Positions 31,786-47,354 of a stretch of DNA of 64,000 nucleotides are shown one piece after another (position 1 is the stretch's first letter; each line of letters opens with the position of its first letter). A program made the position numbers and the translations under genes. The DNA is taken from NCBI GenBank assembly GCA_001784175.1, contig MFPR01000004.1, forward strand, positions 186,001-250,000, read 5' to 3'. The notes below the pieces were generated by a model. The model did not search any database and was not told the DNA's origin. It worked only from the letters and a program-made list of their open reading frames with translations. Source of the stretch: Candidatus Lindowbacteria bacterium RIFCSPLOWO2_12_FULL_62_27 (GTDB taxonomy: Bacteria; Lindowbacteria; 2-12-FULL-62-27).

Positions 31786-32046
31786 ATGAGAAAGAAACCG
31801 GAGCGGATCGAGACCATTCGGCGGCGGCATCGGGGCAGAAAGCTGTGGCTGCTCATCGCGGTGGATACACTGGACCCGGAAACGGGGCTGGGACTGACCG
31901 GGCGGCTTTTGGCCAAAGACCCCGACCCCCATGCGCTGACCCCGGTGGCCCTGAAAACCAAACACCGGCATCTGGCGGTCGAGTGTTCCGAGGACATGCC
32001 CAAAGACACCGTCTGCATCTTCCTTCATGTCAGTCCAGCGGCTTGA
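31786..32046 (+). CDS. Small hypothetical protein coupled to the aspartic protease
   Basis: Leaderless start after TTGATC-17-TATAAA; overlaps the next gene. Confidence 0.6.
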   Translation: MRKKPERIETIRRRHRGRKLWLLIAVDTLDPETGLGLTGRLLAKDPDPHALTPVALKTKHRHLAVECSEDMPKDTVCIFLHVSPAA

Positions 32047-32425
32047 TCCAAAGCCGGACGTCATTGTCGTCAAGGCGACCGTGTACGGTGCGCGGGAGCG
32101 GGTCGAAACCCGCCTGATCCTTGACACCGGGGCCGCCACCACGTTGATCGATCCCGACATCCTGCTGGTGGCGGGGTATGATCCCGCAAAGGCTGTTCGT
32201 CGACAGGCCATGACCACGGCCAGCGGCCATGCCTATGCGCCTCTACTCGCGGTGCGTCGTCTTGTGGTCCTCGGGCATGCCGTCGGGACCATTGACGTGG
32301 TCGCCCATTCCCTGCCTCCGAACGTCCCCGTCCGGGGACTTTTGGGCATGAATTTCCTTCGGCATTTCAACCTCCACCTCGAATTCCCGGCGCGCCGGCT
32401 GCGGATGGAAGGGGGGAGAAGCTGA
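32027..32425 (+). CDS. Retropepsin-like (clan AA) aspartic protease
   Basis: LILDTGA and GLLGMNFL. Confidence 0.88.
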   Translation: MSVQRLDPKPDVIVVKATVYGARERVETRLILDTGAATTLIDPDILLVAGYDPAKAVRRQAMTTASGHAYAPLLAVRRLVVLGHAVGTIDVVAHSLPPNVPVRGLLGMNFLRHFNLHLEFPARRLRMEGGRS

Positions 32426-32494
32426 GGCTTGGGAAGAAGACAGAAGACAGAATACAGGAGACAGAAGAAAATCGACCCACAAAAGGAGAAAAGC

Positions 32495-32695
32495 ATGGAA
32501 AAGGCGAAAACATTTGAGGAGTTGACGGTCTGGCAGAAGGCGCATCGGGTGGTGCTCGGGATTTATCGCGCGACGGCCGGGTTTCCGAAACATGAAATCT
32601 ACGGCCTGACGTCCCAATTCCGAAGGTCGGCCGTGTCCATCCCGGCCAACATCGCCGAAGGATTCAAAAAGCGAGGCAAGCCGGATCATGAATGA
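32495..32695 (+). pseudogene. Truncated four helix bundle gene
   Basis: Near-identical to the 31320 copy up to GKPD, then stops. Confidence 0.88.
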
Positions 32696-32920
32696 TTATT
32701 TGTCATTTCTTATTGGTTATTGGTCAGTTCCAAATAACAAATAGAAAACAACAAATGACCAATAACAAATAATCCTTGATGGGTCTCTTGTGCCTCTTGT
32801 GTAAAAAATGCGTAACTCGTGTTACCTGGTGTCTGGTGAAAAAGGGTTCGAGGATTCGAGGGGTCGAGGGTTCAAGTGAAATTCTCCCTCTGTGTGAGTA
32901 CAAATTAGAGAGCAGAACGG

Positions 32921-33019
32921 TTACTGCTGTTCTGTCTTTTTCGCCAAATACAGCGCAACTACACCGTAGAGCAGACCAAAAATCGAAAATACCAAAAGCG
33001 CGGTTTCTCGTGCGTCCAT
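32921..33019 (-). CDS. 32-aa single-TM peptide
   Basis: Manual translation MDARETALLVFSIFGLLYGVVALYLAKKTEQQ. Confidence 0.55.
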   Translation of the reverse strand: MDARETALLVFSIFGLLYGVVALYLAKKTEQQ

Positions 33020-33033
33020 GTGTGAATCATCCC

Positions 33034-33216
33034 CTAACTTTTCTTTTTTGTCAACGCGACGGCCATCATAAGAAGCGCCACGCCCGTCAGCCACCCGATG
33101 AACTGAACGGGCCGGAGACTTTCGCGCGTTATCCAGTCCGCAAAACTGCCGATGATCGCCGCAAGGCCAAAACTGCGGACGTGGATTTTTATTTCCTCGA
33201 TGCGTTCCGGCGTCAT
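33034..33216 (-). CDS. 60-aa two-TM membrane protein
   Basis: MTPERIEEIK...GLAAIIGSF...WLTGVALLMMAVALTKKKS. Confidence 0.55.
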   Translation of the reverse strand: MTPERIEEIKIHVRSFGLAAIIGSFADWITRESLRPVQFIGWLTGVALLMMAVALTKKKS

Positions 33217-33399
33217 ATCAGCGCCGCCGCCGCGGCCGGAATGTCCGATTGGAACGATGCCGTGTCCATGCTCTGCATTATCGGCATCAGCGTGATTCCT
33301 CGTGAGGGCCGACGCCATCCCGGCCTCTATTTGATTTTCCGGTTTTCTATGTTTCTTCTGTCTCCTGTATTCTGTCTCCTGTCTTCTTCCCAAGCCCCC

Positions 33400-33702
33400 A
33401 AAAAAATATTTTGAAAAAATACTTGACTTGCACGCTTTTTTTGGTACCTTTGCACAATTACCCCTTCGTGTTCACGCACCTTTCGAGCCGAAGGGATAAG
33501 GCCTTACCCCGCTTGGCGGGGGGGGCGAAAAACGGCTAACATACCTGCCCATAACTGTTATGGCAGGTTTCAGAGCGGGCGCCTCAAGCGTTCCGGTCTG
33601 ATAGGCTTTAGTGAATATAGAGCAATACCCAAGAATGCTCCATTGTTTGACAGGCAACGAGGATTCGCAACAAGGAGCAGAACTTCAAAGGGGGGTTACA
33701 TC
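33400..33702 (+). promoter_or_regulatory. Promoter and long structured 5' leader of the surface-protein gene
   Basis: A-rich UP tract, TTGACT-16-(TG)TACCTT, then ~245 nt with at least 4 hairpins. Confidence 0.55.
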
Positions 33703-35397
33703 TTGAAGCACGGATTAATCTTTTTTGCGGCGCTGGTCGCGGTGGCGCTGGTTGTCAGTCCCGCAGCTTGGGCGGATACGAAGCAAGTAGACAGCCTCAG
33801 TAACACGACCACAGATGCAGGCGCTGATATTGCTGTTGGTGCTAATGGCGATATCTACGTGAGCGCCAAAGTTAGCGCGCAGCAGTTACAAGTCCAAAAG
33901 GGCACCAATGGGGGGACGTTTACAGATTTTTTACCCGCCACTGTTGTTGATACCAACTCGACGGCGGCCAGTGTTTCTACGCAGAGAACTGCCATTGCTC
34001 TTTATGGTCCTACCGACTCACCGATCGTGGCAATCGATTCGGTTATAGCGGGGCCAGGAGGGGGCACCGACACAAGTCGCGGGATCGCCATCTATGTGAA
34101 TGACACGGGTACCTCAACCATGCGGCGGCTTACGACAGTAGATTTGCGTGGTGCTTCCCTCGAAACACAGACTCAGAGGATAACAGCATTTGACTTGCTG
34201 GCTAATGACAGTTATGTCATCCTTTGTGTCAATTATGGATCGCCAAGCAGCGCTTCTGGCTCCGTTAGGCAGGCGGACACGCTTGCGTTGTTTATCTGGC
34301 GTGTAGCTGGGAACGGAGCTGCGTTGGCGTCTCTCGAGTATACACGGTACGTGCTTGATACTGACCCCGGTTTGGGCGCCGATTTGCAGATCGCAGAAGG
34401 ACCTGCCGGGGGTCTGAAAGTTGCGACGGATACGGCGTTCAGGTTTTACGTTATGCTCAATGTGACCGAAGACACCGAGGCCAATGCTGGTGAGGGTGTT
34501 ACTATTGAAGACAGAGACACTGGTATATCTGTATATCGTGTGACGTTGGCAGATTCTTCGTCAGGAGGCCCTGGTTTATGGTCTGCCAAGTTGCGATTCA
34601 GCTCGTCCAGATACGGAGTTATTTCGGCTGGTGGCGGTGACACATTTGTTGACGCGGCCATGGCGCTGGATCAGGAAGACGCGGGTGACACGATTGATCG
34701 TGTGACCATTATTGTGTCGCCCCATACGCAGCAAAAGGGGGCAGACACGCTGTTCATCCTCGTGATTGATGATGACTCGGCATCAATCCCTCCTGCCAAT
34801 TCAAACGCTGGGGATAGTGCGGCTAATGGATCGCCATTCCAGTGGTCCGATACGTTCTCACAGCTTGATACAGGCCTTGCAAACGTGGCACAGACTGTTG
34901 CGGCGAGACCGGCGTCTCTGGCATTCAACAGATCAGGCAACGCGCTGACTCTGTACTACATTTCGAACGCCGGTAATCTCTACAAGGCGACGGCATCCCT
35001 TGACGCGACCTCGCGGGGGTACGACACTTCATTTGCAGCGTCGATCTCGTGGAGCGTGGATACCCTCAACCAAAATCTCGGATACGCGCACAACGATCCC
35101 GTTATGGACATTGCTGCTAATCTTCCGAACACTCGAAGTTATCTAGAACTGTCGCAGACCGTGGTGAATAACGTGCTTTATGTGGTCGGCCACGACAGGA
35201 CGAGCGGAAGGATTTGGTATGTGACCTCCAGCGCCGCCGCGGAGTCAAAGAAGAAAGAGAGCGCGGTGTGTTTGATGGACCGTTTGTTAGGGAAGACAGG
35301 ATTGCGGGCGGCGTTTCCAGCGCTCAAGACGTTCCGTGACACCCTCCTCGGGACGGATTTGGGCCGGAAGGCTGTCAGTCTGTATTACGGGTTCTAA
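33703..35397 (+). CDS. Secreted surface protein with a CFI-box-CTERM-like C-terminus
   Basis: TTG start after a G-rich SD; signal peptide ending AWA; S/T/A/G/D-rich body; tail CLMDR..LKTFRD.LL....GRKAV.LYY. Confidence 0.75.
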   Translation: MKHGLIFFAALVAVALVVSPAAWADTKQVDSLSNTTTDAGADIAVGANGDIYVSAKVSAQQLQVQKGTNGGTFTDFLPATVVDTNSTAASVSTQRTAIALYGPTDSPIVAIDSVIAGPGGGTDTSRGIAIYVNDTGTSTMRRLTTVDLRGASLETQTQRITAFDLLANDSYVILCVNYGSPSSASGSVRQADTLALFIWRVAGNGAALASLEYTRYVLDTDPGLGADLQIAEGPAGGLKVATDTAFRFYVMLNVTEDTEANAGEGVTIEDRDTGISVYRVTLADSSSGGPGLWSAKLRFSSSRYGVISAGGGDTFVDAAMALDQEDAGDTIDRVTIIVSPHTQQKGADTLFILVIDDDSASIPPANSNAGDSAANGSPFQWSDTFSQLDTGLANVAQTVAARPASLAFNRSGNALTLYYISNAGNLYKATASLDATSRGYDTSFAASISWSVDTLNQNLGYAHNDPVMDIAANLPNTRSYLELSQTVVNNVLYVVGHDRTSGRIWYVTSSAAAESKKKESAVCLMDRLLGKTGLRAAFPALKTFRDTLLGTDLGRKAVSLYYGF

Positions 35398-35448
35398 GTC
35401 AGTCAACCAAGTATCATCGGCGCTTCTAAACCTTTAAGAAGCCCTTTC

Positions 35449-35490
35449 AACCCTGTTGTGGCGAACCAACGCCGCAACAGGGTTTTTTAT
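35449..35490 (+). terminator. Intrinsic terminator (repeated at ~36128, ~40681, ~45119; variant at ~41506)
   Basis: AACCCTGTTGTGGCG-AACCAA-CGCCGCAACAGGGTT followed by a T run. Confidence 0.88.
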
Positions 35491-35521
35491 TTGGTAACTA
35501 CTCGGGAGGAACGAACCACGA

Positions 35522-35583
35522 ATGAACACGAATGGACACGAATTGTTGTTGAAGGAGGAAGTGTACGAGGTCGTGGGATGTTG
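35522..35583 (+). pseudogene. 5' fragment of a GxxExxY protein gene
   Basis: MNTNGHELLLKEEVYEVVGC overlapping CACGAAT repeats; cut at the TCATGGTGTCATT motif. Confidence 0.6.
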
Positions 35584-36171
35584 TCATGGTGTCATTCTTC
35601 TACTTTGCTACTTTCGAGCGCAGTGTGCTTGATGGACCGGCTGTTCGGGAAGACAGGATTGCGGGCGGTGCTTGCAGGCGCTCAAGACGTTCCGTGACAC
35701 CCTCCTCGGAACGGATTTGGGGCGGAAGGCCGTCGGTCTGTATTACCCAGGGGTTTTTATTTTCGGGTCTTCCGGTTTTCCTGTGGGTAAAAGAGAGGCA
35801 TTTTATCGGGAGACGCGCCCCCTCTCCCGAACCCTCTACCCCACATTCCCCCTTCTCGAATGTCGTCAACGTCATGGATCTGGGATGAACGATGTGAGTG
35901 GTTTCATGGTGTCATTCTTCTACTTTGCTACTTTCGGGCGCGGTGTGTTTGATGGACCGTTTGTTCGGGAAGACAGGATTGCGGGCGGTGCTTGCAGGCG
36001 CTCAAGACGTTCCGTGACACCCTCCTCGGGACGGATTTGGGTCGGAAGGCTGTCAGTCTGTATTACGGGTTCTAAGTCAGTCAACCAAGTATCATCGGCG
36101 CTTCTAAACCTTTCAGAAGCCCTTTCAACCCTGTTGTGGCGAACCAACGCCGCAACAGGGTTTTTTATTTT

Positions 36172-36200
36172 TTGACAGACCGTATTTTTCTGACTATACT
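36172..36200 (+). promoter_or_regulatory. Sigma70 promoter of hicAB
   Basis: TTGACA-17-TATACT immediately after the repeat's terminator. Confidence 0.8.
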
Positions 36201-36238
36201 GATGGGGTGAGGAGGACGTGTTTTTCTAGAATAACCAC

Positions 36239-36490
36239 ATGAGCAAATATGAGAAACTTCTGTTGCGGATATTGAGTGGAACGTCGGATGCAAATATCCG
36301 TTTCGCGGCCCTGTGCCATCTTCTGAAGCGATTTGGCTTTGATGAACGAACAGAGGGGGGCCACCATGTTTTCAGAAAGGCGGGCGTAGAAGAGAAAATC
36401 AATTTGCAAAGAGATGGCAGCAAAGCAAAGCCCTATCAAGTTCGGCAGGTACGCGCCGTCATTTTGAAATACAGAATAGGAGACGAGTAG
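36239..36490 (+). CDS. hicA: HicA family toxin
   Basis: GF.ER..GGHHVF...INLQ..G.KAKPYQVRQV. Confidence 0.88.
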   Translation: MSKYEKLLLRILSGTSDANIRFAALCHLLKRFGFDERTEGGHHVFRKAGVEEKINLQRDGSKAKPYQVRQVRAVILKYRIGDE

Positions 36491-36492
36491 AT

Positions 36493-36705
36493 ATGGAACG
36501 CTATGAGATCATTATTTTTTGGAGCGACGAAGATCGTGCATTTGTCGCGGATGTCCCGGAGCTTCCCGGATGCATGGCGCACGGCAGCACGTATGAAGAT
36601 GCCTTGAGAAACGCGCGCAAGGCAATCAAACTGTGGCTAAAAACGGCCAGGGAATTCAATGATCCCATCCCTGTACCGAAGGGCCGGCGCCTCGTTCTTG
36701 CGTAG
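36493..36705 (+). CDS. hicB: HicB family antitoxin
   Basis: WSDED.AFVA.VPELPGCMAHG.TYE.AL. Confidence 0.9.
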   Translation: MERYEIIIFWSDEDRAFVADVPELPGCMAHGSTYEDALRNARKAIKLWLKTAREFNDPIPVPKGRRLVLA

Positions 36706-36789
36706 CCGGCCCCGAGTCCCGGTCGACGGCTGTTCGGCAAGGCGAGGAGATCGATGATCGGGGTCGGGCGTACGTTTATTCGTTAATGC

Positions 36790-36929
36790 TTATCGGGTTG
36801 AGACACCACATCCGTCTTTACCCGAAATGGATAGCCACAAAAGGCACAAAAGTCACAGAAAACATTAAAAATTTTGTGCCTTCTGTGCTTTTTGTGGCTA
36901 AAATGCGGTGCAGGTGTGTCAACCCGATA
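36790..36929. repeat. Nested palindromes (outer TATCGGGTTGA/TCAACCCGATA; inner CACAAAA/TTTTGTG periodic)
   Basis: Inverted repeats read directly from the sequence. Confidence 0.75.
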
Positions 36930-37200
36930 TGCATTTATTCGTTTTCTGTTGGTCCAACCATGCCTGTAAGACTTTGAGGGGTTGTCATGGTGTCATTCTT
37001 CTACTTTGCTACTTTCGAGCGCAGTGTGCTTGATGGACCGGCTGTTCGGGAAGACAGGATTGCGGGCGGTGCTTGCAGGCGCTCAAGACGTTCCGTGACA
37101 CCCTCCTCGGAACGGATTTGGGGCGGAAGGCCGTCGGTCTGTATTACCCAGGGGTTTTTATTTTCTTGACATCTCCCTGTGGCCGTCGTACATTTTCTAC

Positions 37201-37434
37201 ATGAAACTTCTGACAGGCAGGATTACGGTCGATTCAAAGACGGTTGGCGGGAAACCGTTTTTCAGAGGCACGCGTATTCCGGTTTATGTTGTGCTGGAGA
37301 TGCTTGCCAACCGGGAAAGGTCAGAAGATATTTTCAGAGCATATCCCAATCTGACGGAAGACGACCTTCGAGACGCATTGATTTATGCCCGTAATCTTGC
37401 CGAGGTTCCCGCCGCCCCCCCTGCCGCCGCTTGA
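37201..37434 (+). CDS. DUF433 antitoxin-like protein
   Basis: RIT.D....GGKP..RGTRIPV...YPNLT. Confidence 0.9.
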   Translation: MKLLTGRITVDSKTVGGKPFFRGTRIPVYVVLEMLANRERSEDIFRAYPNLTEDDLRDALIYARNLAEVPAAPPAAA

Positions 37435-37805
37435 AAATCCTGATCGACAACAACCTCCCTTTCTGGTGGGCAGCGAAGCTGAGGAAGGACGGTCTCGAAG
37501 CGTCACATGTCATTGACTGTGGATTGGCCGATCGACCGGATGACGATGTCCGTCAGGCCTTCAAATCCGAACCGATTCTTCTGATTTCTCGCGATTCCGA
37601 TTTCTGGAATGACTGTCCGGCCGGTTGGTCATTGATCTGGGTCTGTATCCATAACCCCCGCCTGGCCGATCTTCAATCCCGGATATACGACACCATCCGT
37701 CAAGCCATCCGCAACGCCAAGCCCGGCGTACGATGTCTGGTCACGGACGACGGCATCATCCGATTCGGGGAAGGCGCTGTTTCCGGCGCTCAAGACGTTC
37801 CGTGA
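37431..37805 (+). CDS. DUF5615 / PIN-like toxin
   Basis: MKILIDNNLP, HV..GL, LISRDSDF; last codons supplied by a repeat copy. Confidence 0.85.
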   Translation: MKILIDNNLPFWWAAKLRKDGLEASHVIDCGLADRPDDDVRQAFKSEPILLISRDSDFWNDCPAGWSLIWVCIHNPRLADLQSRIYDTIRQAIRNAKPGVRCLVTDDGIIRFGEGAVSGAQDVP

Positions 37806-38055
37806 CACTCGCTCCTCGGAACGGATTTGGGGCGGAAGGCCGGGGGAAAACATTGGCCACAAACGAACACGAACGATCACGAACAGACACGAAAAAACAT
37901 TCTTCCCATGTAAAAATGTTCGAGTTCGTTCGTGTTCCATGTTCGTTTCCGTTCGTGGAATATGTTGAATGGTTCTCCTCCCCCTTCTACCGACCCCTTA
38001 CCGGGCAACCGGATTTTTTATTGACAGTCCCTTGGACGTGGGATAGAATTTCAGT

Positions 38056-38238
38056 GTGAGATTGACGGAGAAGCAGCATTCAAATGCGGCAAAGATTATG
38101 ATCAACATAGGAACGATTTGGTTTGCCACCGGAGTTATCGGCGGCGCTTTTAAAACGCCTTTTTCACCAACAGAATTTTGGTCTGGTATCGTCGTATCCC
38201 TGCTCTGTTTTCTCGGAGCGATCCTGATGGAGAGGTGA
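38056..38238 (+). CDS. 60-aa two-TM membrane protein
   Basis: Leaderless after TTGACA-17-TAGAAT; two hydrophobic segments. Confidence 0.65.
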   Translation: MRLTEKQHSNAAKIMINIGTIWFATGVIGGAFKTPFSPTEFWSGIVVSLLCFLGAILMER

Positions 38239-38245
38239 TCGAATC

Positions 38246-38347
38246 ATGACCCCATTAATATTGATGTCTTTAACGACCGCCATCGTGGTCACCCTATTTG
38301 TCTCTTGGGTGCTCATTTCCGACCATAGGCCTAAAAAACCCCAGTGA
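38246..38347 (+). CDS. 33-aa single-TM peptide
   Basis: MTPLILMSLTTAIVVTLFVSWVLISDHRPKKPQ; SD GAGGTGA contains the upstream stop. Confidence 0.6.
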   Translation: MTPLILMSLTTAIVVTLFVSWVLISDHRPKKPQ

Positions 38348-38702
38348 CAACGGACAACGAGCGGCGCCGTCGCGGAGTCGAAGAAGAAAGACAGCGTGGT
38401 GTGTTTGATGGACCGGCTGTTCGGGAAGACGAGTTTGCGGGCGGCGTTTCCGGTTAATCGGTATCATGTGTCATGGTCATGGTCATGTGTCATGTGTCAT
38501 GGTGTCATTCTTCTACTTTGCTACTTTCGGGCGCAGTGTGCTTGATGGACTGGCTGTTCGGAGAGACGACTTTTGCGGGCGATGTTTCCGGCGCTCAAGA
38601 CGTTCCGTGACACTCGCTCCTCGGGACGGATTTGGGTCGGAAGGCTGTCAGTCTGTATTACTGGTTCCAATGCTGAAGATTCGGCCGCGGCGGACCCGCC
38701 CT

Positions 38703-38876
38703 TCACGCGCGCGCGGCGGCATTCCGGGAGATGATCTTCCTCTTTGGGCGCCGGACACGGTACCGACTTTCGAGTCCTTTCAAATACTCGACAATCTTGA
38801 CGGGGTCATGCCCATATTCCCGTGAAATGACGCTTCGAATGCGCCGGATGGCGCCGATGACCGGATCTGTTTTCAT
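38703..38876 (-). CDS. Antitoxin-like partner of the PIN protein
   Basis: MKTDPVI..IR.IR..IS..YGHDP; ATGA overlap; homologous to 40726-40899. Confidence 0.7.
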   Translation of the reverse strand: MKTDPVIGAIRRIRSVISREYGHDPVKIVEYLKGLESRYRVRRPKRKIISRNAAARA

Positions 38877-39358
38877 GGCATCTCCTCCTTTCCTGACATC
38901 AATTCCAGCGGCGTAACCAACTCCGAGACATCCAATCCCAGAATCGTATTCACGGCTCGAATGTGCGCAAACTTGCGGGCATTGGCCAGATGCTGACAAT
39001 TCAACGTAAGCAAGTAATCGCAGCGATGGAATGACGCAACCGCCAAATGAAGCGCATCCCCTGCGGGATCCACGGGCATCACGCGCCGCGCGATGTAAAC
39101 TCGGGTAATGTCGGCAATTTCGTCCGTCAGTTCCAATATCTCGACGGAATTCATAAGACGCATTGCCCGGGTACGGTTCGGCCAGTTCCCGCGTTCGAGT
39201 TCGGCCCATACGGCCACACTGGTCACAAGTTCGAACTGGTGACGATTCTCATGCCACCATTTTCTTGTCCAGAGCCGCCGCGCCATCATTTCCGGCTGCG
39301 GCCGGGTATCAAAGTAAAAGCTGGGTATGGACGTTTCAATGTACACGCGCCTTTTCAC
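38873..39358 (-). CDS. PIN domain (VapC-like) toxin
   Basis: VYIETSIPS, DALHLA.AS...CDYLLT.NC.HLANA. Confidence 0.88.
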   Translation of the reverse strand: MKRRVYIETSIPSFYFDTRPQPEMMARRLWTRKWWHENRHQFELVTSVAVWAELERGNWPNRTRAMRLMNSVEILELTDEIADITRVYIARRVMPVDPAGDALHLAVASFHRCDYLLTLNCQHLANARKFAHIRAVNTILGLDVSELVTPLELMSGKEEMP

Positions 39359-39472
39359 ATCGACAGCCTACCACAGCATACCGCCAAAAACAAAAACCGC
39401 CCACAGCGATTCCGCAAATAAAGAATCCGAAGTGATCCAAGTCCTACAAAGATAGGCCAAAACAGGAAAAGC

Positions 39473-39667
39473 GAGGTTGTCCCCCGTTTAGTTGAAAATG
39501 AAGAGGCGGTTCTCCCCTCCCGGATGTTAATCTGGGAGTGCAGATTTTCAAAAACAGAAAGGAGAACCGCCATGAAGAGAAAGTACCAGAGGATTCAGAC
39601 GAAAAGCAACGAGGACATGATGTTGCCTGCGGGGGTCAAGCTGGACGACATCATCGACGGAGTTTGG
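39473..39667 (+). mobile_element. Possible IS left end with truncated transposase start (IS256-like?)
   Basis: GAGGTTGTCC end; SD sequestered in a GGCGGTTCTCC/GGAGAACCGCC hairpin; ORF MKRKYQ... cut after ~32 codons by the repeat. Confidence 0.35.
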
Positions 39668-39823
39668 TCATGGTGTCATTCTTCTACTTTGCTACTTTCG
39701 GGGGCGGTGTGTTTGATGGACCGGCTGTTCGGGAAGACAGGTTTGCGGGCGGCGTTTCCGGCGTTCAAGACGTTCCGTGACACTCGCTCCTTGGGACGGA
39801 TTTGGAGCGGAAGCTGAAGCCAA

Positions 39824-40019
39824 ATGAAGGTACGGGATATAATCAAGAAAATTGGGGCCGATGGCTGGTACTTGGTCGAGACGAAAGGCAGCCATCAACA
39901 GTACAAGCACCCGTCCAAACCGGGGCGGGTCACCGTTGCCGGACATCCCGGCGGATGATCTGGCGCCTGGAACGCTCAACAGCATTTTAAAGCAGGCGGC
40001 CCTCAAGGAGGCAAAATAG
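39824..40019 (+). pseudogene. hicA: HicA toxin with a one-base frameshift
   Basis: DGW.....KGSH.QYKHP.KPGRVTVAGHPG, then an extra G; DDLAPGTLNSILKQA continues in another frame. Confidence 0.85.
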
Positions 40020-40020
40020 G

Positions 40021-40236
40021 ATGTACCGATTCTTGATTGTCATCGAAAAAGCAAACGGAAACTACTCGGCGTACTCTCCCGATCTGGCCAGCTGCATCGC
40101 GACAGGTCGCACGCGCGAAGAGGCCGAGCGCAATATGCACGGGGCGATTGAAATGCATATCAAGGGACTCCGGGAGGACAATCTCCCGATCCCCGAATCC
40201 TCCTCCTTCGCCGAATACGTGGCCGTCGGTTTTTGA
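40021..40236 (+). CDS. hicB: HicB family antitoxin
   Basis: YSAYSPDL..C.ATG.T.EEA...M..AI..H..GL. Confidence 0.88.
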   Translation: MYRFLIVIEKANGNYSAYSPDLASCIATGRTREEAERNMHGAIEMHIKGLREDNLPIPESSSFAEYVAVGF

Positions 40237-40479
40237 CCGAGAACGTGTGAATAAATCCTTTATCCACGAAGTGGCACGAAGGAGCATCGGACGACAGAAG
40301 GCGGAAACCATTGGCCACGAACGGCACGAACGATCACGAACAGACACGAAAGAACAAATTTCCCGGTTCAGTGACGGAAACGGAACTCGATACCTGCAGG
40401 ACGTCCTGGGTGTAACCATCGCCAGCATGGCGCTGGTATCAGGATTTATCTTGACGAAGAGGCTGAACGGCGATAAACT

Positions 40480-40593
40480 ATGAGCGAAATGAACAATGTG
40501 AATTTCGGGTTTCTGCTTTTGTATATCGTCACCATCGGGTGGACGCTGTTTGCGTGGTGGGCTTCAGGCAAGTATAAGCCATCAGAAAAGTAG
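40480..40593 (+). CDS. 37-aa single-TM peptide (upstream partner survives only as a 3' remnant)
   Basis: MSEMNNVNFGFLLLYIVTIGWTLFAWWASGKYKPSEK; ATGA overlap with a hydrophobic ORF tail. Confidence 0.6.
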   Translation: MSEMNNVNFGFLLLYIVTIGWTLFAWWASGKYKPSEK

Positions 40594-40725
40594 GCGTCCA
40601 CCTGCGGGACCACCCTCCATCGGCCGGAAGGCTGACAAATTCGGATCATCGGCGCTTCTAAACCTTTAAGAAGCCCTATCAACCCTGTTGTGGCGAACCA
40701 ACGCCGCAACAGGGTTTTTTTTTCA

Positions 40726-40899
40726 TTATTTTGTCCCGCCGACCGGTCCGGCCGGCGAAGGCTCTTTGTAAATCCGTTCAGGATGCCTTTGTTCAAGTTG
40801 GCGCAGATGCTCGATCATTTTAAGCGGGTCGTGCCCAAACTGCGCAGAAATTTTTCTCCGGGCTTCTCTCACTTTCTCGACCCCTGGATCATCTTTCAT
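40726..40899 (-). CDS. Antitoxin-like partner of the PIN protein
   Basis: Manual translation MKDDPGVEKVREARRKISAQFGHDPLKMIEHL... Confidence 0.7.
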   Translation of the reverse strand: MKDDPGVEKVREARRKISAQFGHDPLKMIEHLRQLEQRHPERIYKEPSPAGPVGGTK

Positions 40900-41380
40900 C
40901 GGATTCCTCCTCGCTTAAAAGCTCCAATGGCGTCACCAGATTCGGGACGAAAAGGCCCAACATGGCATTGACGATGCGAATATGCTCGAACTTGTTGGCA
41001 TTTGCCAGGTGGCGACAGTTCCACGTCACCAAATAATCACACCGATAATATGAAGCGAACGCCAGATGCAGAGCGTCGCCTACCGGATCGGCCGGCATCA
41101 CACGGTGACGGACATAGGCCGTGACGATCTCTGACAGACGCTCTGTTGCCGGCAACACGGAAACTTTTTCGATCAACCTCAGGCACTCATCCCGCGCCGG
41201 GTGATTCCCGCTTTGCAGTTCATCTATCACCGCCTCGCTTGTGACCAACTCATATTTTTCCCCAAGCCGATCCCACCACTGCACCGTCCAATCACGGCGC
41301 GAGACCATGTCCGACTCCGTACGGGTCTCAAAATAAAAGCTCGGGATCGTCGTCTCAACATATATTCGTTTCTTCATCAC
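40889..41380 (-). CDS. PIN domain toxin, paralog of 38873-39358
   Basis: IYVETTIPS, DALHLA, TWNCRHLANA. Confidence 0.88.
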   Translation of the reverse strand: MMKKRIYVETTIPSFYFETRTESDMVSRRDWTVQWWDRLGEKYELVTSEAVIDELQSGNHPARDECLRLIEKVSVLPATERLSEIVTAYVRHRVMPADPVGDALHLAFASYYRCDYLVTWNCRHLANANKFEHIRIVNAMLGLFVPNLVTPLELLSEEESDER

Positions 41381-41789
41381 ACACCCATTCTATCCCAATC
41401 CTCATTCCTTTTCCACTATCTTGGGTTGCAGTGTCAGGTATTGAGTTATTGCCGTATAAGGAATGCGGCGGTTCCGGCGCTTCTAAACCTTTCAGAAGCC
41501 CTTTCAACCCTGTCGGGGTTAACCAAACCCCCGGCAGGGGTTTTTATTTTGACGGAGAAGCTGAAGTCCATTAACTACGAATCGAACGGTAAACCGAAAG
41601 AGCGCGAAAAATTTCATAGAGAGTTTTTATGTGTTTCTCGAAATTTTGCGTCATTTCGTAGTTAAAGTTTCCTCGATTTTTGCAGCCGGGTTTTTTGACA
41701 TTTGAATCTGTCTTGAATACAATCTGATTGGTTTTGTGAGGCCGATAGGCTGGATGGCATGATGAACAGACAGATGATAGGGTTCCGCC

Positions 41790-42062
41790 ATGCCGGTGGT
41801 ATTCAGATACAAGGGATATCGATTTTTGTTCTATTCGAATGAAGGGGACCCGAGGGAACCTCTTCATATACATATTCAGAAAGGGAGCGCGGTCGCAAAG
41901 GTTTGGCTGATCCCCATACCCTGTGTGGCTGAGAGCTACGGCCTGACGGCGCATGAATTGAACGAGCTTCTGACGATTGCCGTTGAAAACAGAGAGAAAA
42001 TTGAGAGGTGCTGGCATGAGTACTTTGATGACCAATCCCATGGCAAAAAGCCTGCGGTTTGA
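41790..42062 (+). CDS. DUF4160 protein
   Basis: MP.....GYRF.FYSNE...EPLHIH...AKVW. Confidence 0.88.
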   Translation: MPVVFRYKGYRFLFYSNEGDPREPLHIHIQKGSAVAKVWLIPIPCVAESYGLTAHELNELLTIAVENREKIERCWHEYFDDQSHGKKPAV

Positions 42063-42288
42063 TGATGATACCCTGTGGGTCGACTTGGAGGATGGCCGAC
42101 GGCTGGGTGTGCCCCTCGCTTATTTCCCCCGCCTCCTAAGGGCATCGCCCGAACAAAGAAACGGGTTTGTGATCAGTGGCGGCGGGACGGGCCTTCATTG
42201 GGACGCAATTGATGAAGACATTTCCGTTCCCGCCTTGATGATGGGCATTGGGGATCGCACCACCCGTTCAACCCCGAAGAAATCGTAA
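42016..42288 (+). CDS. DUF2442 protein
   Basis: L.DGR.L.VPL..FPRL..A...G.GLHW..IDEDISV. Confidence 0.88.
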   Translation: MSTLMTNPMAKSLRFDDDTLWVDLEDGRRLGVPLAYFPRLLRASPEQRNGFVISGGGTGLHWDAIDEDISVPALMMGIGDRTTRSTPKKS

Positions 42289-42566
42289 CCCGGGAAGAGG
42301 AGTGTGTCCCTCCGATGCCTGCCAACTTCTCGATCTTCATATATAATCAGAAGCCCTTTCAACCTTGGTGTGGCGAACCAACGCCGTAAGGCGGAAACCG
42401 CATAACACGAATGGTCACGAATGTGTTCGAATGGACACGAAGGGAGAACCCACAAAGCGCTTTCTTCTACTTGACACCCCTACTGGAAACCCCTTAACTT
42501 CCGACCCCTTACGTTCACCGACGCTTTTTGTTTGACATTCCCAGAGGCCGCGGCTAAACTGTACAC

Positions 42567-42848
42567 ATGAAAATAGAGGAGCTGACCGAGGCGTTTCGAA
42601 AGGCCATGGTGGACACGTTCATCCCGGAAATTCGACAGCTCCGGGAGGAAATATGCGGGCTGCGGGGGGAAATGCAGGCGCAAAACGCCGCGCTGCGGGG
42701 GGAAATGCAGGCGCAAAACGCCGCGCTGCGGGAGGAAATGAAAGAAATCAAAGGCGCTTTGAATGTCATCCTTCACCGTCTGGATGTGGCCGATCGGGTG
42801 GCCAAGCTTGAAGGTCAGATGGAATATCTCCTCAAGAAGGCCAGTTGA
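42567..42848 (+). CDS. Small coiled-coil protein with an 11-aa tandem repeat
   Basis: LRGEMQAQNAA twice (33 bp); leaderless promoter TTGACA-17-TAAACT. Confidence 0.7.
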   Translation: MKIEELTEAFRKAMVDTFIPEIRQLREEICGLRGEMQAQNAALRGEMQAQNAALREEMKEIKGALNVILHRLDVADRVAKLEGQMEYLLKKAS

Positions 42849-42897
42849 GGCTCAGGTGTTTGAACGGTGGAATCCATGTGCGACCTATAACGATTGG

Positions 42898-43685
42898 GTA
42901 GAGTCGAGGTGAGGCGCGGTAACAGCGGGTAAGCTGTCCCGTTTCCTCACCCCGCTCATCGAACCGGACGTGCGGATTTGCCGCATCCGGCTCTCGGACT
43001 GATTTCACGCAGGGCATGCGAGACGTTCCTTCTTCAGGTTCATCAGACTGGTCATCCCCAGTTCGCCGTAAATCGCGTCACGGCCAAACCGGCGATATCC
43101 CTGTCCGGCGATCTTGTGTCTCTTGCGCAGAAATCGACGCACACTATCCTCAACGTAACGATCCGTACGTAGATATCCCTTCGAACAGCTCCCGTAACTG
43201 AAATAGTTCGCCCAGCCAGTCAGCAGTCGATTCAATCTCTGACACAGATTCGGCCACGGTGTCGGGTTGCCTCGATAGAGCAACCCCTTCAGACGCTCTC
43301 GAAGCCGTTTCTCCGCCTTCCGGCTCGGACACGCTCCCAAATATCGTGCGCCGTTCTTCGGCCAGATCATCGGACCGAACGTGTAACCCAGAAAGTTGAA
43401 ACTCTCCCGGCGTCCATCCCTCACACAGGTCTTGCTCTCGTTGAGCTTGAGGCCAAGCCGTTCCGTCACCCGCTTCGTCCACTCCAAGGCTTTCCGCCCT
43501 TCTTGCCGACACAAAATCACAAAGTCGTCGGCGTAGTTTACGATTCGGGCTTGAAACCGCTCCGCCGCTCCGCTCGTCCGAAAATACAACAGCAGTCTCC
43601 GCATGTAGATGTTCGCCAATAACGGCGAGAGAACTCCTCCCTGCGGCATCCCTCGCGTACTTCGTTTCCCGCCGGTAAGTCGGTG
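42898..43685 (-). mobile_element. 5'-truncated group II intron (RT4-7, X domain, DV, DVI)
   Basis: DV GAGAGCCGGATGCGGCAAATCCGCACGTCCGGTTC; DVI ending CTCGACTCTAC. Confidence 0.92.
43005..43685 (-). pseudogene. ltrA: Group II intron RT/maturase, N-terminal half missing
   Basis: GMPQGGVLSPLLANIYM, YADD, FNFLGY, GWANYF. Confidence 0.9.
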
Positions 43686-44029
43686 TTGCGACACTGTCAT
43701 TCTTCTACTTTGCTACTTTCGGGCGCAGTGTGCCTGATGGACTGGCTGTTCGGCAAGACGAGTTTGGGGGCGATGTTACCGGGTCTGACGACGTTCCGTT
43801 GTGCGGGAAGTCCCGTGCATGGAGCAGGCGCATCGGGCAGGTTCACGGGCACGTTTACGATCACGTTTCCAACTGATAGGATGAACCTCTTGCATGAGGT
43901 TGTGGGTTCGAATTTGAACGTGAACCTGCACGTGCCCGTGAACGTGCCCGAATTGGGCGCCCTCATGAATGGTGACGGGAGTGAGGAAGTCCTCTCCCCC
44001 CAAGCAAGGGGGATTAAGGAGGGTGTGAC

Positions 44030-44491
44030 ATGGCGGCGGTGAAGCCTCGCGTGTATTTGGACACAACGGTTCCGAGCGCCTATCTGGATGCGCGTTCGCC
44101 TGACCGTCAGCGTTTGACGGCGCATTTTTGGAATTTTCGTCTGCCTGAATTTGTGCCGATGATTTCAACGATTGTTCTTTCGGAGATTCGCGATACGCCG
44201 GATATTGACAAACGCGGAAAAATCGAGAAACTTGTAGAAGAATTCGACGTGGTAGAGTTTGACGTCCGGGCGGATGATCTGGCTCAGCGGTACGTCCAAA
44301 ACGGGATATTCCCGGACAAATACGAATCGGACGCGCGCCACGTGGCCGTGGCTGTCGTGAACGGCATTGCCTATTTTGCAAGCTGGAATTTCAGGCATCT
44401 GGTCAAAGTAAAAACGCGGCGTGAGATCAATTCGGTCAATGCCCTTCAGGGCTACGGCCCCATCGAGATCGTGGCGCCCCCTGAATTATAG
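44030..44491 (+). CDS. PIN domain toxin
   Basis: VYLDTTVPS, DARHVA, SWNFRHLV. Confidence 0.88.
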   Translation: MAAVKPRVYLDTTVPSAYLDARSPDRQRLTAHFWNFRLPEFVPMISTIVLSEIRDTPDIDKRGKIEKLVEEFDVVEFDVRADDLAQRYVQNGIFPDKYESDARHVAVAVVNGIAYFASWNFRHLVKVKTRREINSVNALQGYGPIEIVAPPEL

Positions 44492-44500
44492 GAGACGAAC

Positions 44501-44707
44501 ATGAAGAAGTTGAGCAACACTGAAACGCGGGAAGCATGGCGGGTGGTTCGAAGGGATTTTCCCGACGATGAAATGATGCAGGAAATTCATTTCGTCCGCA
44601 TCCTTCACCGGCGTCAGACCCGCCGCCTGTCCCAAAGAGAGCGTATCCGCTTTTACCAGCGAGCAAAGCAGGGCAGAGTGCAAAAACACTCCATAGCCGG
44701 CCTTTAA
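44501..44707 (+). CDS. Antitoxin-like partner
   Basis: 68 aa, follows the PIN gene with an AGGAG SD. Confidence 0.6.
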   Translation: MKKLSNTETREAWRVVRRDFPDDEMMQEIHFVRILHRRQTRRLSQRERIRFYQRAKQGRVQKHSIAGL

Positions 44708-44835
44708 AGGTCGGCCTGCCCCGTCAGACCGGCGGTTTTGGCAGGATTACGGGTAATAGTCCCTGCTGGTCCTGACCGTCGGACTCTGGTTGACAAGAGG
44801 CTTGAACGGGGATAAAACATAGGCAGGTGATACGC

Positions 44836-44937
44836 ATGGAAAATGGAGAATACGGATTTTTGTTGATGTATGCGGTCCTGATCGCGCTGTCGGTTTTTGG
44901 ACTTTACGTAGGCGCACACGCCCGACCGATCGACTGA
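44836..44937 (+). CDS. 33-aa single-TM peptide
   Basis: MENGEYGFLLMYAVLIALSVFGLYVGAHARPID; TTGACA upstream; SD AGGTGA. Confidence 0.6.
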   Translation: MENGEYGFLLMYAVLIALSVFGLYVGAHARPID

Positions 44938-45046
44938 CCTTGGGATGGTGGGCGGTCACGGAGGGTCCGGAAGCCGTTCCATGACACTCGGTCCTCGGGA
45001 CGGATTTGGGGCGGAAGGCTGTCGGTCTGTATTACGGGTTCTAACC

Positions 45047-45074
45047 GTAGGGGCGATGCATGCATCGCCCGTAC
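45047..45074. repeat. GTAG-type REP
   Basis: GTAGGGGCGATGCATGCATCGCCCGTAC, located just after the stop codon inside a repeat copy. Confidence 0.8.
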
Positions 45075-45191
45075 AAATTCGGATCATCGGCGCTTCTAAA
45101 CCTTTCAGAAGCCCTTTCAACCCTGTTGTGGCGAACCAACGCCGCGACAGGGTTTTTTATTTTCGAATGGAGGAAAAGGAGGCAAAATAGG

Positions 45192-45407
45192 ATGTACCGG
45201 TTTTTGATTGTCATCGAAAAAGCAAACGGCAACTGCTCGGCGTACTCCCCCGATCTGGCGGGTTGCGCAGCGACGGGTCGCACGCGCGAGGAGGCCGAGC
45301 GCAATATGCACGGGGCGATTGAAATGCATATCAAGGGACTCCGGGAGGACAATCTCCCGATCCCCGAATCCTCCTGCTTCGCCGAATACGTGGCCATCGG
45401 ATTTTGA
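45192..45407 (+). CDS. hicB: Orphan HicB, near-duplicate of 40021-40236
   Basis: Near-identical DNA; preceded only by AAGGAGGCAAAATAG, the last codons of hicA. Confidence 0.85.
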   Translation: MYRFLIVIEKANGNCSAYSPDLAGCAATGRTREEAERNMHGAIEMHIKGLREDNLPIPESSCFAEYVAIGF

Positions 45408-45569
45408 CCGATGGATCGTCGGCTCTTCGGCCTTCGGTAAGTTCCAGTTGTCATAAGCCAAGAAGAGCTTGTATGATATGGGCTGTAAGGTTGAGCGTGT
45501 CATGGGGTCGACGGGAACGGAGGTCGCTGGATTGCCGGATTGGCGCGGTAGACGTATGAACCAAACGAT

Positions 45570-46157
45570 ATGAAAAAGAGACGGATCGTCCACGTGATAG
45601 CCGGGGCTAATGGGTCCGGCAAGACAACGTTCGCCATGCGGTATCTGCCGCGGATGGCCGGTTGCAGGAATTTCGTCAATGCCGACCTCATCGCTTCCGG
45701 TCTTTCCCCCTTGAATGTCGACGCGGGGGCCATGCGGGCGGGAAAGCTTTTTCTGCAGAGGATCGAAGAGGAAATCCGAAGTAAAAGAGATTTTGCGTTT
45801 GAGACCACTTTGTCCGGACGCCGATTACAGCGTCTTTTCAATCGCTTGCGGAATAAAGGATATCGGATTCGTCTGTATTTTCTGTGGATATCCACGGTGG
45901 AATTGGCATTGAAGCGCGTCTCGGATCGTGTGCGGATGGGCGGGCACTCCGTTCCGGCGCGGGTCATCCGCAGACGTTATGGAAGAGGTATCCAGAACCT
46001 TTTCAAAATCCATGTCCATTTGGCCGACTACTGCGCCATTTTTGACAACTCCTCGACAGAACCAGTCCTGATATGTGAATATATAAAGGGGCGGGAGCGC
46101 ATCGTAAGATCCTCGTTGTTTGACGATATCCGGAAACGCGCGGAGGGAATATCATGA
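45570..46157 (+). CDS. Zeta-toxin-like P-loop ATPase
   Basis: AGANGSGKTT, NADLIA, ETTLSG, RV..GGH.VP, DNS. Confidence 0.88.
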   Translation: MKKRRIVHVIAGANGSGKTTFAMRYLPRMAGCRNFVNADLIASGLSPLNVDAGAMRAGKLFLQRIEEEIRSKRDFAFETTLSGRRLQRLFNRLRNKGYRIRLYFLWISTVELALKRVSDRVRMGGHSVPARVIRRRYGRGIQNLFKIHVHLADYCAIFDNSSTEPVLICEYIKGRERIVRSSLFDDIRKRAEGIS

Positions 46158-46351
46158 AGAACGTCGGCCGGCGGCCAACACCGATCGGCAAAAAAGCCGA
46201 ACGGGCACTTCGTGAGGCTGTGGCGGAGGTGGTTGAAGGACATCGCCGCCGAAATCTGCCGCTGGCGGTCATGCGGAACGGGAAGGCCGTATTCGTGCCG
46301 CCCGACAAACTCATTCTGAAGCCACGCCGACCACGCCGGTCATTCCGTTAG
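46154..46351 (+). CDS. Small partner of the zeta-like ATPase
   Basis: ATGA overlap; A...H...NLP..V.RNGK.V. Confidence 0.7.
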   Translation: MKNVGRRPTPIGKKAERALREAVAEVVEGHRRRNLPLAVMRNGKAVFVPPDKLILKPRRPRRSFR

Positions 46352-46540
46352 TTTTGTCAGTTTATAGGGCGTACGGTGTCCACTGACCGAATACTGTGAC
46401 CGGATTTTTTATTTTATGAACATGGCGCCATGCGTTGTTGAGCGACTGGCGATCGGGTGCGGCACGATGCACCTGTGCTTTCCCGTCGGGATTTTTCATT
46501 CATCTTGACTTCCTGGACTCGAACGGGATAATGGGACCGT

Positions 46541-46738
46541 GTGAATGAGGGAAGACGCCGAGAGGTGGGAAAGCTCTTTTTTGACATTGCCAAATATTTT
46601 GCGACGATCGTGGGAGGGACGTTCTTGGTCAAGCCTGAGGTGGTGACGCCGGCACTCGGCATCAAGACGGGGATATTGGTTTTGCTGGTTCTGCTCATCG
46701 GTTGGTTTATGTACCCGAAAGGAGGGAAGGAAAAATGA
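46541..46738 (+). CDS. 65-aa two-TM membrane protein (DUF6722-like)
   Basis: EVGKLFFDIAKY motif; two hydrophobic segments. Confidence 0.65.
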   Translation: MNEGRRREVGKLFFDIAKYFATIVGGTFLVKPEVVTPALGIKTGILVLLVLLIGWFMYPKGGKEK

Positions 46739-46851
46739 TGGAGACGATTGAACCAGGGAATGGTCTGTTGCTTTTCTATGGGATCATCTGTGTGGGTGGC
46801 GCGCTATTAGGCGCATGGGGAGCGTGGCAGGATTCAAGGAAAAAACCATGA
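46735..46851 (+). CDS. 38-aa single-TM peptide
   Basis: MMETIEPGNGLLLFYGIICVGGALLGAWGAWQDSRKKP; ATGA overlap. Confidence 0.6.
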   Translation: MMETIEPGNGLLLFYGIICVGGALLGAWGAWQDSRKKP

Positions 46852-47039
46852 ACGAGAACGGTGTCAGGCCTTGAGTTACTACTCGGAGCATAAATACTTG
46901 ACACATGACCATGACTGAAATTTCTTCGTGTTCCTTCGTGTTCCTTCGTGGATGAATGATTTTCCCCGTCTACCAACCGTAAAACTTGACATATGACCAC
47001 AATGGTATATACTTTTTGAGGGTCCAGAATGAGGATTGA

Positions 47040-47354
47040 ATGAAGGAACAACGGACATACGAACTGGCCGGCGATGCTCGGGGACAACTGGAACATTTCG
47101 ACGTTTATGTCCAGAGGATCATCGTCGATAGCCTTCGTCAACAGCTTGTCGATGCCGACCCGGCGACGGAGACGGTCCACAAGGGAATACTGAAGGAACC
47201 GGTGGGCGATGCAACGCATAAAATTGAAATTAGAGCCTGGCGCGCATATTACAAGATCGAACGCGCCGCAGACGTCATTCGGTCCGTGGTTCTGATCATC
47301 GGCGAAAAACGCGGCAATAAATTATTTGTCGAGGGAAAGGAATATCCGACGTGA
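47040..47354 (+). CDS. RelE/ParE-like toxin
   Basis: EIRAWRAYYKI...IGEKRGNKL; promoter with an imperfect palindrome upstream. Confidence 0.7.
   Translation: MKEQRTYELAGDARGQLEHFDVYVQRIIVDSLRQQLVDADPATETVHKGILKEPVGDATHKIEIRAWRAYYKIERAADVIRSVVLIIGEKRGNKLFVEGKEYPT

Follow-up and report, generated by a model that had tools for sequence, protein, structure and literature searches.

Predicted toxin-antitoxin modules punctuated by copies of a neighbouring gene's coding end and terminator in Candidatus Lindowbacteria

The genome of Candidatus Lindowbacteria bacterium RIFCSPLOWO2_12_FULL_62_27, an uncultured groundwater bacterium, carries a gene whose own 3′ end and terminator recur downstream between small predicted toxin-antitoxin (TA) operons. 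The locus lies in the 64,000-nt stretch analysed here (the window), which is G000:C4:186001-250000, where G000 denotes assembly GCA_001784175.1 (44 contigs and 4,388,263 bases, or 4.39 Mb) and C4 its 507-kb contig MFPR01000004.1; positions given without a contig refer to the window. The gene, hereafter the anchor gene (33643-35397, plus strand), was taken from the open reading frame (ORF) listing and encodes a secreted protein of 584 amino acids (aa). We define B as the last 167 nt of this gene (35231-35397) and C as the next 98 nt (35398-35495). The native copies, both on the plus strand, are B0, the coding tail that blastn and self-comparison identify as the source of the B copies, and C0, a two-hairpin terminator or 3′ untranslated region (UTR) element delimited by folding and covariation.

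All ten blastn matches of B and all six of C in the whole assembly fall on this contig, within 35231-45162 and on the plus strand (E values of 6e-7 to 6e-83), and blastn found no copy of either elsewhere in the 4.39 Mb. A permissive search with multiple alignment extended the census to the native end and 12 further whole or partial units, U1 to U12, at 35.5 to 45.2 kb. They stand 0.1 to 3.9 kb apart, every interval but one being shorter than 1.6 kb, and form the top local direct-repeat cluster of the assembly, with 44 pairs. An earlier reading of the letters, the original prediction, had claimed about 12 gene-oriented recurrences of both elements over 10 kb, and the 16 plus-strand matches and 12 units agree with it. 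It had also proposed a genome-wide search for B, which found the copies confined to the locus and not distributed like a miniature inverted-repeat transposable element (MITE). A dispersed MITE or repetitive extragenic palindrome (REP) was accordingly rejected for B and C, given that these 16 matches and all six covariance-model matches of C in the assembly lie within 10 kb. Outside this genome, B- and C-like DNA occurs only in three genomes of the same family, each from another genus (G001, G002 and G003), and in none of 37 more distant genomes; all three relatives encode an ortholog of the anchor protein with the same intact tail.

The units, all on the plus strand, differ in how much of the gene end they keep and in whether they open with a 26-nt motif, A, that is not part of the gene. 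U1 (35579-35764) consists of A, B and the tail of C, most of C being deleted, and has a frameshift of +1 nt; U2 (35895-36171) has A, B and a full C; U3 (36975-37165) equals U1 over 185 nt. U4 (37773-37840) is a middle piece of B, and U5 (38364-38451) joins the native linker to the 5′ half of B without A. U6 (38452-38670) comprises a (TGTCATG)n microsatellite, A, and B with a frameshift of +2 nt, while U7 (39650-39813) has A and the first ~140 nt of B and abuts hicA. U8 (40618-40725) retains a short remnant of B and a full C; U9 (41465-41550) is a fusion of B to C with compensatory changes in the terminator stem; U10 (42347-42389) is part of C. The most diverged unit, U11 (43695-43799), has a 5′-truncated A and the 5′ half of B, and U12 (44943-45163) combines the 3′ part of B, a palindromic insert of ~30 nt and a full C.

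Four features of these copies had been described in the original prediction, and each was recovered in the alignment. The identical pair of ~185 bp is U1 and U3, which are 100% identical over 185 nt (35580-35764 and 36981-37165, a few bases from where the prediction had put them), non-adjacent and with unrelated flanks. The copy at 35904, claimed to be a mosaic, is U2, with at least three switches between gene-type and U1-type (35580-type) sites. The copy at 38358, said to keep the native linker, is U5, which is 89% identical and the sole unit with any native linker; that at 41465, U9, indeed fuses B to C through the shared CGGCGCT. Frameshifting indels define two sub-families, with +1 nt in U1 to U3 and +2 nt in U4, U6, U7 and U12. 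B in the units is non-coding, and since these 1-nt and 2-nt insertions are shared within the sub-families, the units must have been copied from each other and not individually from the gene. A coding role for the units was rejected, as the ORFs opening at an ATG ahead of A lack conservation in G001 and differ in frame from unit to unit. No secondary structure of A-B beyond that of shuffles was found on either strand (z from +0.5 to +1.6).

Motif A was overlooked in the original prediction, and it is integral to the punctuation in three genera. It opens six units (U1, U2, U3, U6, U7 and U11), which, with the native end and U5 set aside, are all six of those that retain the 5′ start of B. A joins B at the same base each time, where the native gene end and U5 have the native linker instead, and is preceded by at least one TGTCATG microsatellite unit. 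It is built of two tandem octamers, is not palindromic and forms no hairpin in the A-B folds. At up to six mismatches the assembly holds 15 A sites, nine of them outside the array and each of these behind a locus-specific heptamer microsatellite. Furthermore, A is the terminal inverted repeat of a Y1 (IS200/RAYT-like) transposase element at C44:3783-4863, where a 37-nt inverted repeat containing A (C44:3783 and C44:4827) surrounds a Y1_Tnp match at C44:3871-4194, within the transposase gene at C44:3838-4800. The genome has nine Y1 transposase genes of ~300 aa, none of which lies on the 507-kb contig, and eight of the nine have ends of the same style. We also observed that these eight have inverted ends ~1 kb apart, each a GGGGTCA-like sequence plus two tandem octamers, with the family on contigs C1, C22, C24 (two), C36, C41, C43 and C44. 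Outside the ends of the C44 element lie G-rich heptamer microsatellites (G3N4, possibly quadruplex-forming) like those of the solo A copies. One A copy, at G000:C41:106410, is in frame within an apparent signal peptide (..GHSDTLTLS..), and in the array units, too, A can be read through in this frame without a stop.

REP-associated tyrosine transposases (RAYTs) are reported to be flanked by their cognate repeats (PMC3337134). A likewise stands in inverted copies on either side of a Y1 gene and recurs as solo copies dispersed over the genome, and it lacks the short imperfect palindrome of a REP. Because A is not palindromic, it is a transposon element end rather than a classical REP.

Element C folds into two hairpins (fold z-score, -5.5) with 23 pairs, 13 of which show compensatory changes, and none of 500 shuffles reached the observed covariation. 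Its invariant parts are the 9-nt linker CCCTTTCAA and an AACCAA hairpin loop, and its nearly perfect G+C hairpin with a run of T behind it has the form of a terminator. A covariance model of C has 6, 4, 1 and 1 clear matches in G000, G001, G002 and G003, respectively, found only on the 3′ side of the gene and in the arrays. Two weak matches on G001:C292 are unrelated sequence, and a second array in G001 was rejected. C stands behind the anchor gene in all four genera (35398-35495; L011 1615-1712; L013 165-262; G003:C75:5041-5132). Its exact pattern was found in no other species of a 185,579-genome collection, and Rfam gave no match to A, B or C at E values up to 1. C is a structured RNA or DNA motif that is conserved in four genera and restricted to the lineage; it may serve as a 3′ UTR element that has its own partner.

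The anchor protein has a signal peptide, a body and a conserved C-terminal tail (ESKKK..C.MDR..FRDTLLG..GRK.V.LYY.F), and a Pfam scan assigned it to no family. The body is probably a BNR-like beta-propeller, a lead taken from a structure look-alike in the Atlas. Against CFI-box-CTERM (NF041770) the tail scores 18.5 bits at model positions 17-42 of 69, where the curated cut-off is 40 bits, and none of the 13 weak matches to this model in the whole genome reaches the cut-off. At least seven more large ORFs of the assembly, of 792-1222 aa (C43:187441, C11:8996, C20:136428, C1:262822, C41:90085, C20:74504 and C43:34900), close with a tail of this kind (C..DR...FRD..L.....GR..V..YY), as do many in G001 to G003. 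The shared tail is probably a lineage-specific sorting or anchoring signal that scores below the CFI-box-CTERM cut-off.

Between the units lie the cargo modules, which the original prediction had called self-contained; Pfam recovered its list of two hicAB pairs, DUF433/PIN, three PIN genes, DUF4160/DUF2442 and membrane ORFs, with a lone HicB in addition. The adjacent small genes match paired families, as type II TA systems do, and their toxicity is a prediction; NCBIfam found nothing beyond Pfam. On the plus strand, the first hicA/hicB operon (36239-36705) has a sigma-70-like promoter at 36172-36200, directly after U2, and the DUF433/DUF5615 (PIN-like, PIN_10) pair (37201-37805) has a promoter-like site at 37166-37194. 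The small membrane ORF or ORFs at 38056-38341 (plus strand, ORF listing) are common to the G001 array. A PIN toxin gene with a 57-aa partner (38703-39358) and its paralog, likewise with a 57-aa partner (40726-41380), are on the minus strand; between them the second hicA/hicB operon (39824-40236, plus strand) is homologous to the hicAB of the G001 array (72% nucleotide identity). There follow a DUF4160/DUF2442 pair (41790-42288, plus strand), a 5′-truncated group II intron with domains 5/6 and the C-terminal reverse transcriptase (RT)/maturase part (42924-43700, minus strand), a PIN toxin gene with a 68-aa partner (44030-44707, plus strand) and the lone hicB (45176-45411, plus strand), which self-comparison found 93% identical to 40005-40240. 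Farther on, 45570-47644 (plus strand) holds modules without B or C units, namely a zeta-like ATPase (45570-46157, Pfam) with its partner, DUF6722-like membrane ORFs and an unnamed pair.

Sigma-70-like promoter sites number 19, compared with 8.3 ± 3.5 in shuffles, and strong matches stand right after unit terminators and before cassettes at 36172, 37166, 38021, 41695 and 42532. Their position ahead of the cassette starts suggests that the modules are self-contained operons, each fenced by a copy of the terminator. As a separate observation, the toxin ORF at 37431-37805 (DUF5615/PIN-like) ends inside U4, with B read in another frame, and a HepT ORF in G001 (L011 4008-4418) likewise continues out of frame into a piece of B; the two ORFs stop at the same TGA inside B, and both proteins end ..VP. 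The group II intron is truncated exactly where U11 begins, and its contigs in other samples have very high depth, so that the intron family is abundant there. Two small repeats also occur in the array. Complete or fragmentary copies of a CACGAA-rich inverted-repeat mini-element of ~125 nt are found at several points of the array, outside it and in G003 as well (window 37841-37966, 8475-8595, 40300-40364, 35517-35556 and 42381-42414; L012 557-688). A palindromic repeat of the GGGAGAGG type lies between U1 and U2 (35763-35859), and contig C44 opens with its reverse complement (G000:C44:1-97).

The prediction that no recombinase gene lies in the window, and that the array does without attC or IntI, held. 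No recombinase family was found among the 35 larger window ORFs outside the array, the only related feature among the ORFs scanned being the truncated group II intron, and none of the 14 matches to the tyrosine-recombinase family PF00589 in the genome is on the 507-kb contig. No attC-like fold was seen, the R and L boxes having been looked for by eye only. An integron or a cluster of attC sites lacking integron-integrases (CALIN) was rejected on the absence of IntI from the contig, of an attC fold and of a constant boundary, and on the cassettes' own promoters; unit ends differ in nearly every copy, and two PIN operons are on the minus strand. A diversity-generating retroelement was rejected as well, the differences between copies not being adenine-specific and the nearby RT having a group II intron maturase domain and a D5/D6 match.

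A counterpart is present in G001, a Candidatus Lindowbacteria genome of another genus, where a 4.7-kb array of the same design lies between the gene and a conserved HpcH-like gene. It comprises four copies of C, at least three of B and four of A, and its A-B junction is within about a codon of that in G000. Its B copies match their own gene at 100% over 78 nt, and the gene tails of the two genomes are ~70% alike. A membrane mini-ORF and hicAB are common to both arrays in the same order, the hicAB at 72% nucleotide identity and the flanking orthologs at 70-78%; the remaining G001 cargo differs (DUF4258-DUF2283, MNT/HepT, a second HicA/HicB and CopG). B units of G001 carry a 21-nt remnant of a hicA start, the scar of a deletion through CCTC microhomology. 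In G002 a single B-C is followed by two A copies with an AAA/DUF4143 gene between them. In G003, B and C each occur once, with neither an A at the locus nor an array. The flanks at 26.6-35.4 kb and from 50.1 kb on are conserved in G001 and G002, and the interval that they enclose measures ~15 kb in G000 and 4.7 kb in G001, most of its cargo being different. Since a relative from another genus shares the architecture and two cassettes in the same order, the array is old. Upstream of the anchor gene there is a second variable stretch (30000-33400), missing from G002 and G003, with an AbiEii-like toxin gene, a clan AA aspartic protease gene and two 98%-identical copies of a four-helix-bundle (TIGR02436) gene flanked by heptamer microsatellites.

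The mosaic U2, the identical U1 and U3, and the genome-specific homogenisation of B show that sequence passes among the units, and between the units and the gene, by homologous recombination (gene conversion and concerted evolution); the units also lose parts by microhomology deletion. Identity to the gene drops with distance from it (Spearman, -0.70; n = 9; p = 0.04), the units not being independent; this weak gradient fits either accretion beside the gene or distance-dependent conversion. The original prediction had seen in the repeated end a recombination platform, a reading that is supported in part. The units do recombine with each other and with the gene end, but their breakpoints vary, leaving no defined crossover site, and other samples show no turnover. 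Its alternative, scars of surface-allele replacement, is not evident, the native linker occurring in 38364-38451 alone and no gene-body fragments having been found. It had also called for a comparison with related genomes; cassette content differs between genera, and two cassettes are shared in order.

At 35798-37165, 37137-41362 and 38123-44744 the window is matched at 100% identity by three metagenome contigs from independent assemblies, which argues against misassembly of those parts, and the locus is very likely not a misassembly. The identity of U1 and U3 over 185 nt does exceed short reads and leave the path ambiguous, and contigs of other assemblies break at the repeats. The placement of U1 (35580) comes from the window's own assembly, and short contigs cannot settle the path through U1 and U3. 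However, the three exact matches, the lack of any copy of B or C outside the locus and the same layout in a related genus make an assembly artefact or an ordinary genome-wide MITE highly improbable. Contigs from Logan, examined for four of the eight runs listed as holding the stretch and drawn from different studies, agree with the window. Logan joints at 35536/42406, 40350/37894 and 40131/45283 were rejected as arising from other small repeats or having sides of ~20 nt. A metagenome scan for variants returned only 100%-identical contigs and four chance matches in unrelated genes (L022-L025), and no RNA run containing the stretch was found. The ORFs in seven of eight regions with other local repeat clusters of the assembly were scanned (L035 excluded), and most had no Pfam match. 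Among these regions only G000:C43:43436-52393 (L033) has TA genes (MNT/HepT and DUF433/DUF5615), where a different repeat, of 96 nt, occurs six times in direct orientation within 8.8 kb, its copies seeming to overlap gene starts.

The behaviour of A across genomes bears on whether a transposase moves the cassettes. All array copies of A are in gene orientation (six in G000, four in G001 and two in G002), and in each of the three array-bearing genomes the array variant is that found in the inverted repeat of a Y1 element resident there: the C44 element in G000, C15:4681/5715 with a Y1 gene at 5405-5662 in G001, and C20:23462/24496 with a Y1 gene at 24177-24440 in G002. The cassettes could be site-specific units of a Y1 (HUH) enzyme, which would nick the directly repeated A ends, join adjacent ones and thereby excise or integrate single-stranded A-B-C-cargo circles in which B-C rides as an insulator. 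This proposal would account for the sharp 5′ boundary at A and the variable 3′ ends, for the Y1-element ends that accompany eight of the nine Y1 genes, as at C44, and for G003, which has neither array nor A at the locus. However, the 507-kb contig is without a Y1 gene; U4, U8, U9, U10 and U12 keep no 5′ end at which A could stand, and U5 has the native linker. Furthermore, A offers no hairpin of the kind recognised by IS200/IS605 enzymes (A-B is unfolded, with z above 0), each genome has several A types so that the three-for-three match is weak, and the Logan contigs examined contain no excision joints at A. We consider this proposal unlikely, but a serious rival. Doubtful to a greater degree is an integron analogue in which an HUH enzyme would move A-B-C-promoter-TA modules as single-stranded circles between direct A ends, with the gene tail and terminator as landing pad and insulator, conserved across Lindowbacteria genera.

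The explanation that we tentatively prefer, while holding it short of even confidence, is an old chromosomal, locus-bound TA island into which modules accrete by recombination in the B-C homology and are then reshaped by conversion and microhomology deletion. The boundary unit is non-coding and consists of the microsatellite followed by A (26 nt, the end of a Y1 element), B (140-170 nt) and C, and the order runs from the gene with its native linker, B and C through cargo to A-B-C, then cargo, then A-B, and so on. Such an order would be left by modules of the form B-C-cargo-A, circular or produced by unequal exchange, that recombine with B-C either at the gene or in a unit; each event would restore the tail of the gene and push the displaced tail, now behind A, downstream. 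Prophage e14 at icd/icdC is a single-step precedent (PMC13626634), which would here be iterated. RecA-type homologous recombination would suffice for entry, and nicking or strand transfer by a Y1 enzyme at A may assist. A may be more than a passenger, as all three arrays have it, the genome without an array lacks it at the locus, and its variant tracks the Y1 element resident in each genome. The terminator copies would insulate each autoregulated TA operon, and the operons would persist between direct repeats because their deletion is penalised. We infer the entry step, the insulation and this survival of the TA operons from the arrangement of the sequence.

Several points weigh against this accretion. 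In the alignment the 13 units have no segment that all of them share, and their breakpoints vary, which also fits passive decay; no observation explains how new cargo arrives between C and A. The match between the A variant and the resident Y1 element is suggestive only, coming from three genomes that each have more than one A type. The relatives are other genera represented by incomplete metagenome-assembled genomes (81-91% complete), and the contig of G002 stops after 2.7 kb. The ortholog-like divergence of the two shared cassettes indicates slow turnover, and no cassette gain, loss, reordering or circle was seen in the three metagenome contigs or the Logan contigs. One contig, from run X6, does join 38397 to 39706 across 1308 nt, from U5 to U7, skipping U6 and a PIN operon. 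However, the joint shares 33 nt, about the assembler word length, and has a depth of 8.6 compared with 9.1 for the skipped part, so that a deletion variant and a graph artefact are indistinguishable here.

The same observations invite a passive account, in which one illegitimate duplication of A-B-C was multiplied locally by unequal crossing-over, and TA operons arrived separately and stay by addiction, the decaying repeats having no role as a platform. It would suit the variable breakpoints, the frameshifted and truncated units, the identical arrangement in all other samples examined and the age of the shared cassettes, and a recent segmental duplication did take cargo along (hicB, 93% identical over 236 nt). 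Against it, neutral repeats should decay, whereas another genus keeps the architecture with A at the same junction, the units remain close to each genome's own gene, and the A variants track resident Y1 elements. Nearly all cargo differs between units, and this would need many independent insertions exactly between them. We therefore regard the passive account as rather unlikely, though worth keeping in view beside recombination-driven accretion.

A pile-up of decayed integrative elements was also considered. Each would have entered through a tyrosine integrase and an att site in the 3′ end of the gene, supplying a replacement tail, with the integrases and most cargo since deleted. TA modules are typical stabilising cargo of integrative elements and count in its favour, as do the displaced gene-oriented 3′-end copies, which such elements would be expected to leave, as e14 does at icd and icdC (PMC13626634). 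The spacing of the units speaks against it, the one interval above 1.6 kb holding no integrase, and so do the lack of an integrase remnant in the window or on the contig and of a core sequence common to all units. No tRNA gene was found at 25-55 kb, and a tRNA-anchored island was rejected on that basis. This origin is very unlikely in our judgement.

For the question of how chromosomal hotspots come to collect TA and defence genes when no dedicated recombinase is present, this locus offers an unusually readable record. Its punctuation comes from the coding end and terminator of a neighbouring gene, has been kept gene-like in two genera and is fused to the end of a Y1 element. If modules do enter through B-C homology, the locus would represent a homology-based route to integron-like arrays; if a Y1 enzyme is involved, it would give IS200/RAYT-type enzymes a new job. 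The locus brings together two things of known kind, namely a hotspot of TA genes and target-gene 3′ ends that have been displaced, with an added link to a Y1 transposon end. The literature searches turned up neither an array of this kind nor an account of repeats in Lindowbacteria, nor directly repeated A-type ends fused to a gene tail.

The minimal mobile elements of Neisseria (PMC3787668, PMC3082526) resemble this locus in that different cassettes lie between conserved genes in each lineage and homologous recombination is invoked, and conserved flanks with different content between relatives were found here too. They differ in having no internal punctuating repeats, and their exchange is documented within species, whereas exchange here is inferred between genera only. 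In Escherichia coli K-12, prophage e14 carries a replacement 3′ end of icd, the icdC pseudogene being displaced downstream, and the copies can recombine (PMC13626634). As in that case, an intact gene is followed here by a displaced C-terminal fragment in the same orientation. In contrast to e14, which shows this once, we observed about 12 iterations with inserts of 0.1-3.9 kb that contain no integrase or phage genes, and no short att core is common to all junctions. Moreover, the terminator has been copied too, and displaced tails are fused to the transposon end A.

Sedentary integrons and CALINs share with the array a repeat in one orientation, small modules rich in TA genes, a content that varies between relatives and the plausible stabilisation of the array by its TA modules (PMC5371416, PMC3856429, PMC7923331). 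Here, however, there is no IntI, attC-like hairpin or constant crossover, the modules have their own promoters, two of them are on the opposite strand, and the repeat derives from the coding end of the neighbouring gene. With REP/REPIN-RAYT and IS200/IS605 systems (PMC3337134, PMC3116915) the locus shares inverted copies of A flanking a Y1 gene, plus dispersed solo copies. It departs from the REP/RAYT pattern in that A is non-palindromic, with tandem octamers after a heptamer microsatellite, and in having nine Y1 genes of ~300 aa rather than one short RAYT. Finally, the orphan toxin/immunity modules of rhs and cdiA likewise repeat fragments of a surface gene downstream of it, and homologous recombination between the main gene and the fragments rearranges the locus (PMC3967940). 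What is repeated in those systems is a conserved region that precedes a variable toxin domain, and recombination exchanges the C-terminus of the protein (PMC3967940), whereas here the repeat is the invariant extreme C-terminus together with the terminator, and the cargo consists of independent operons.

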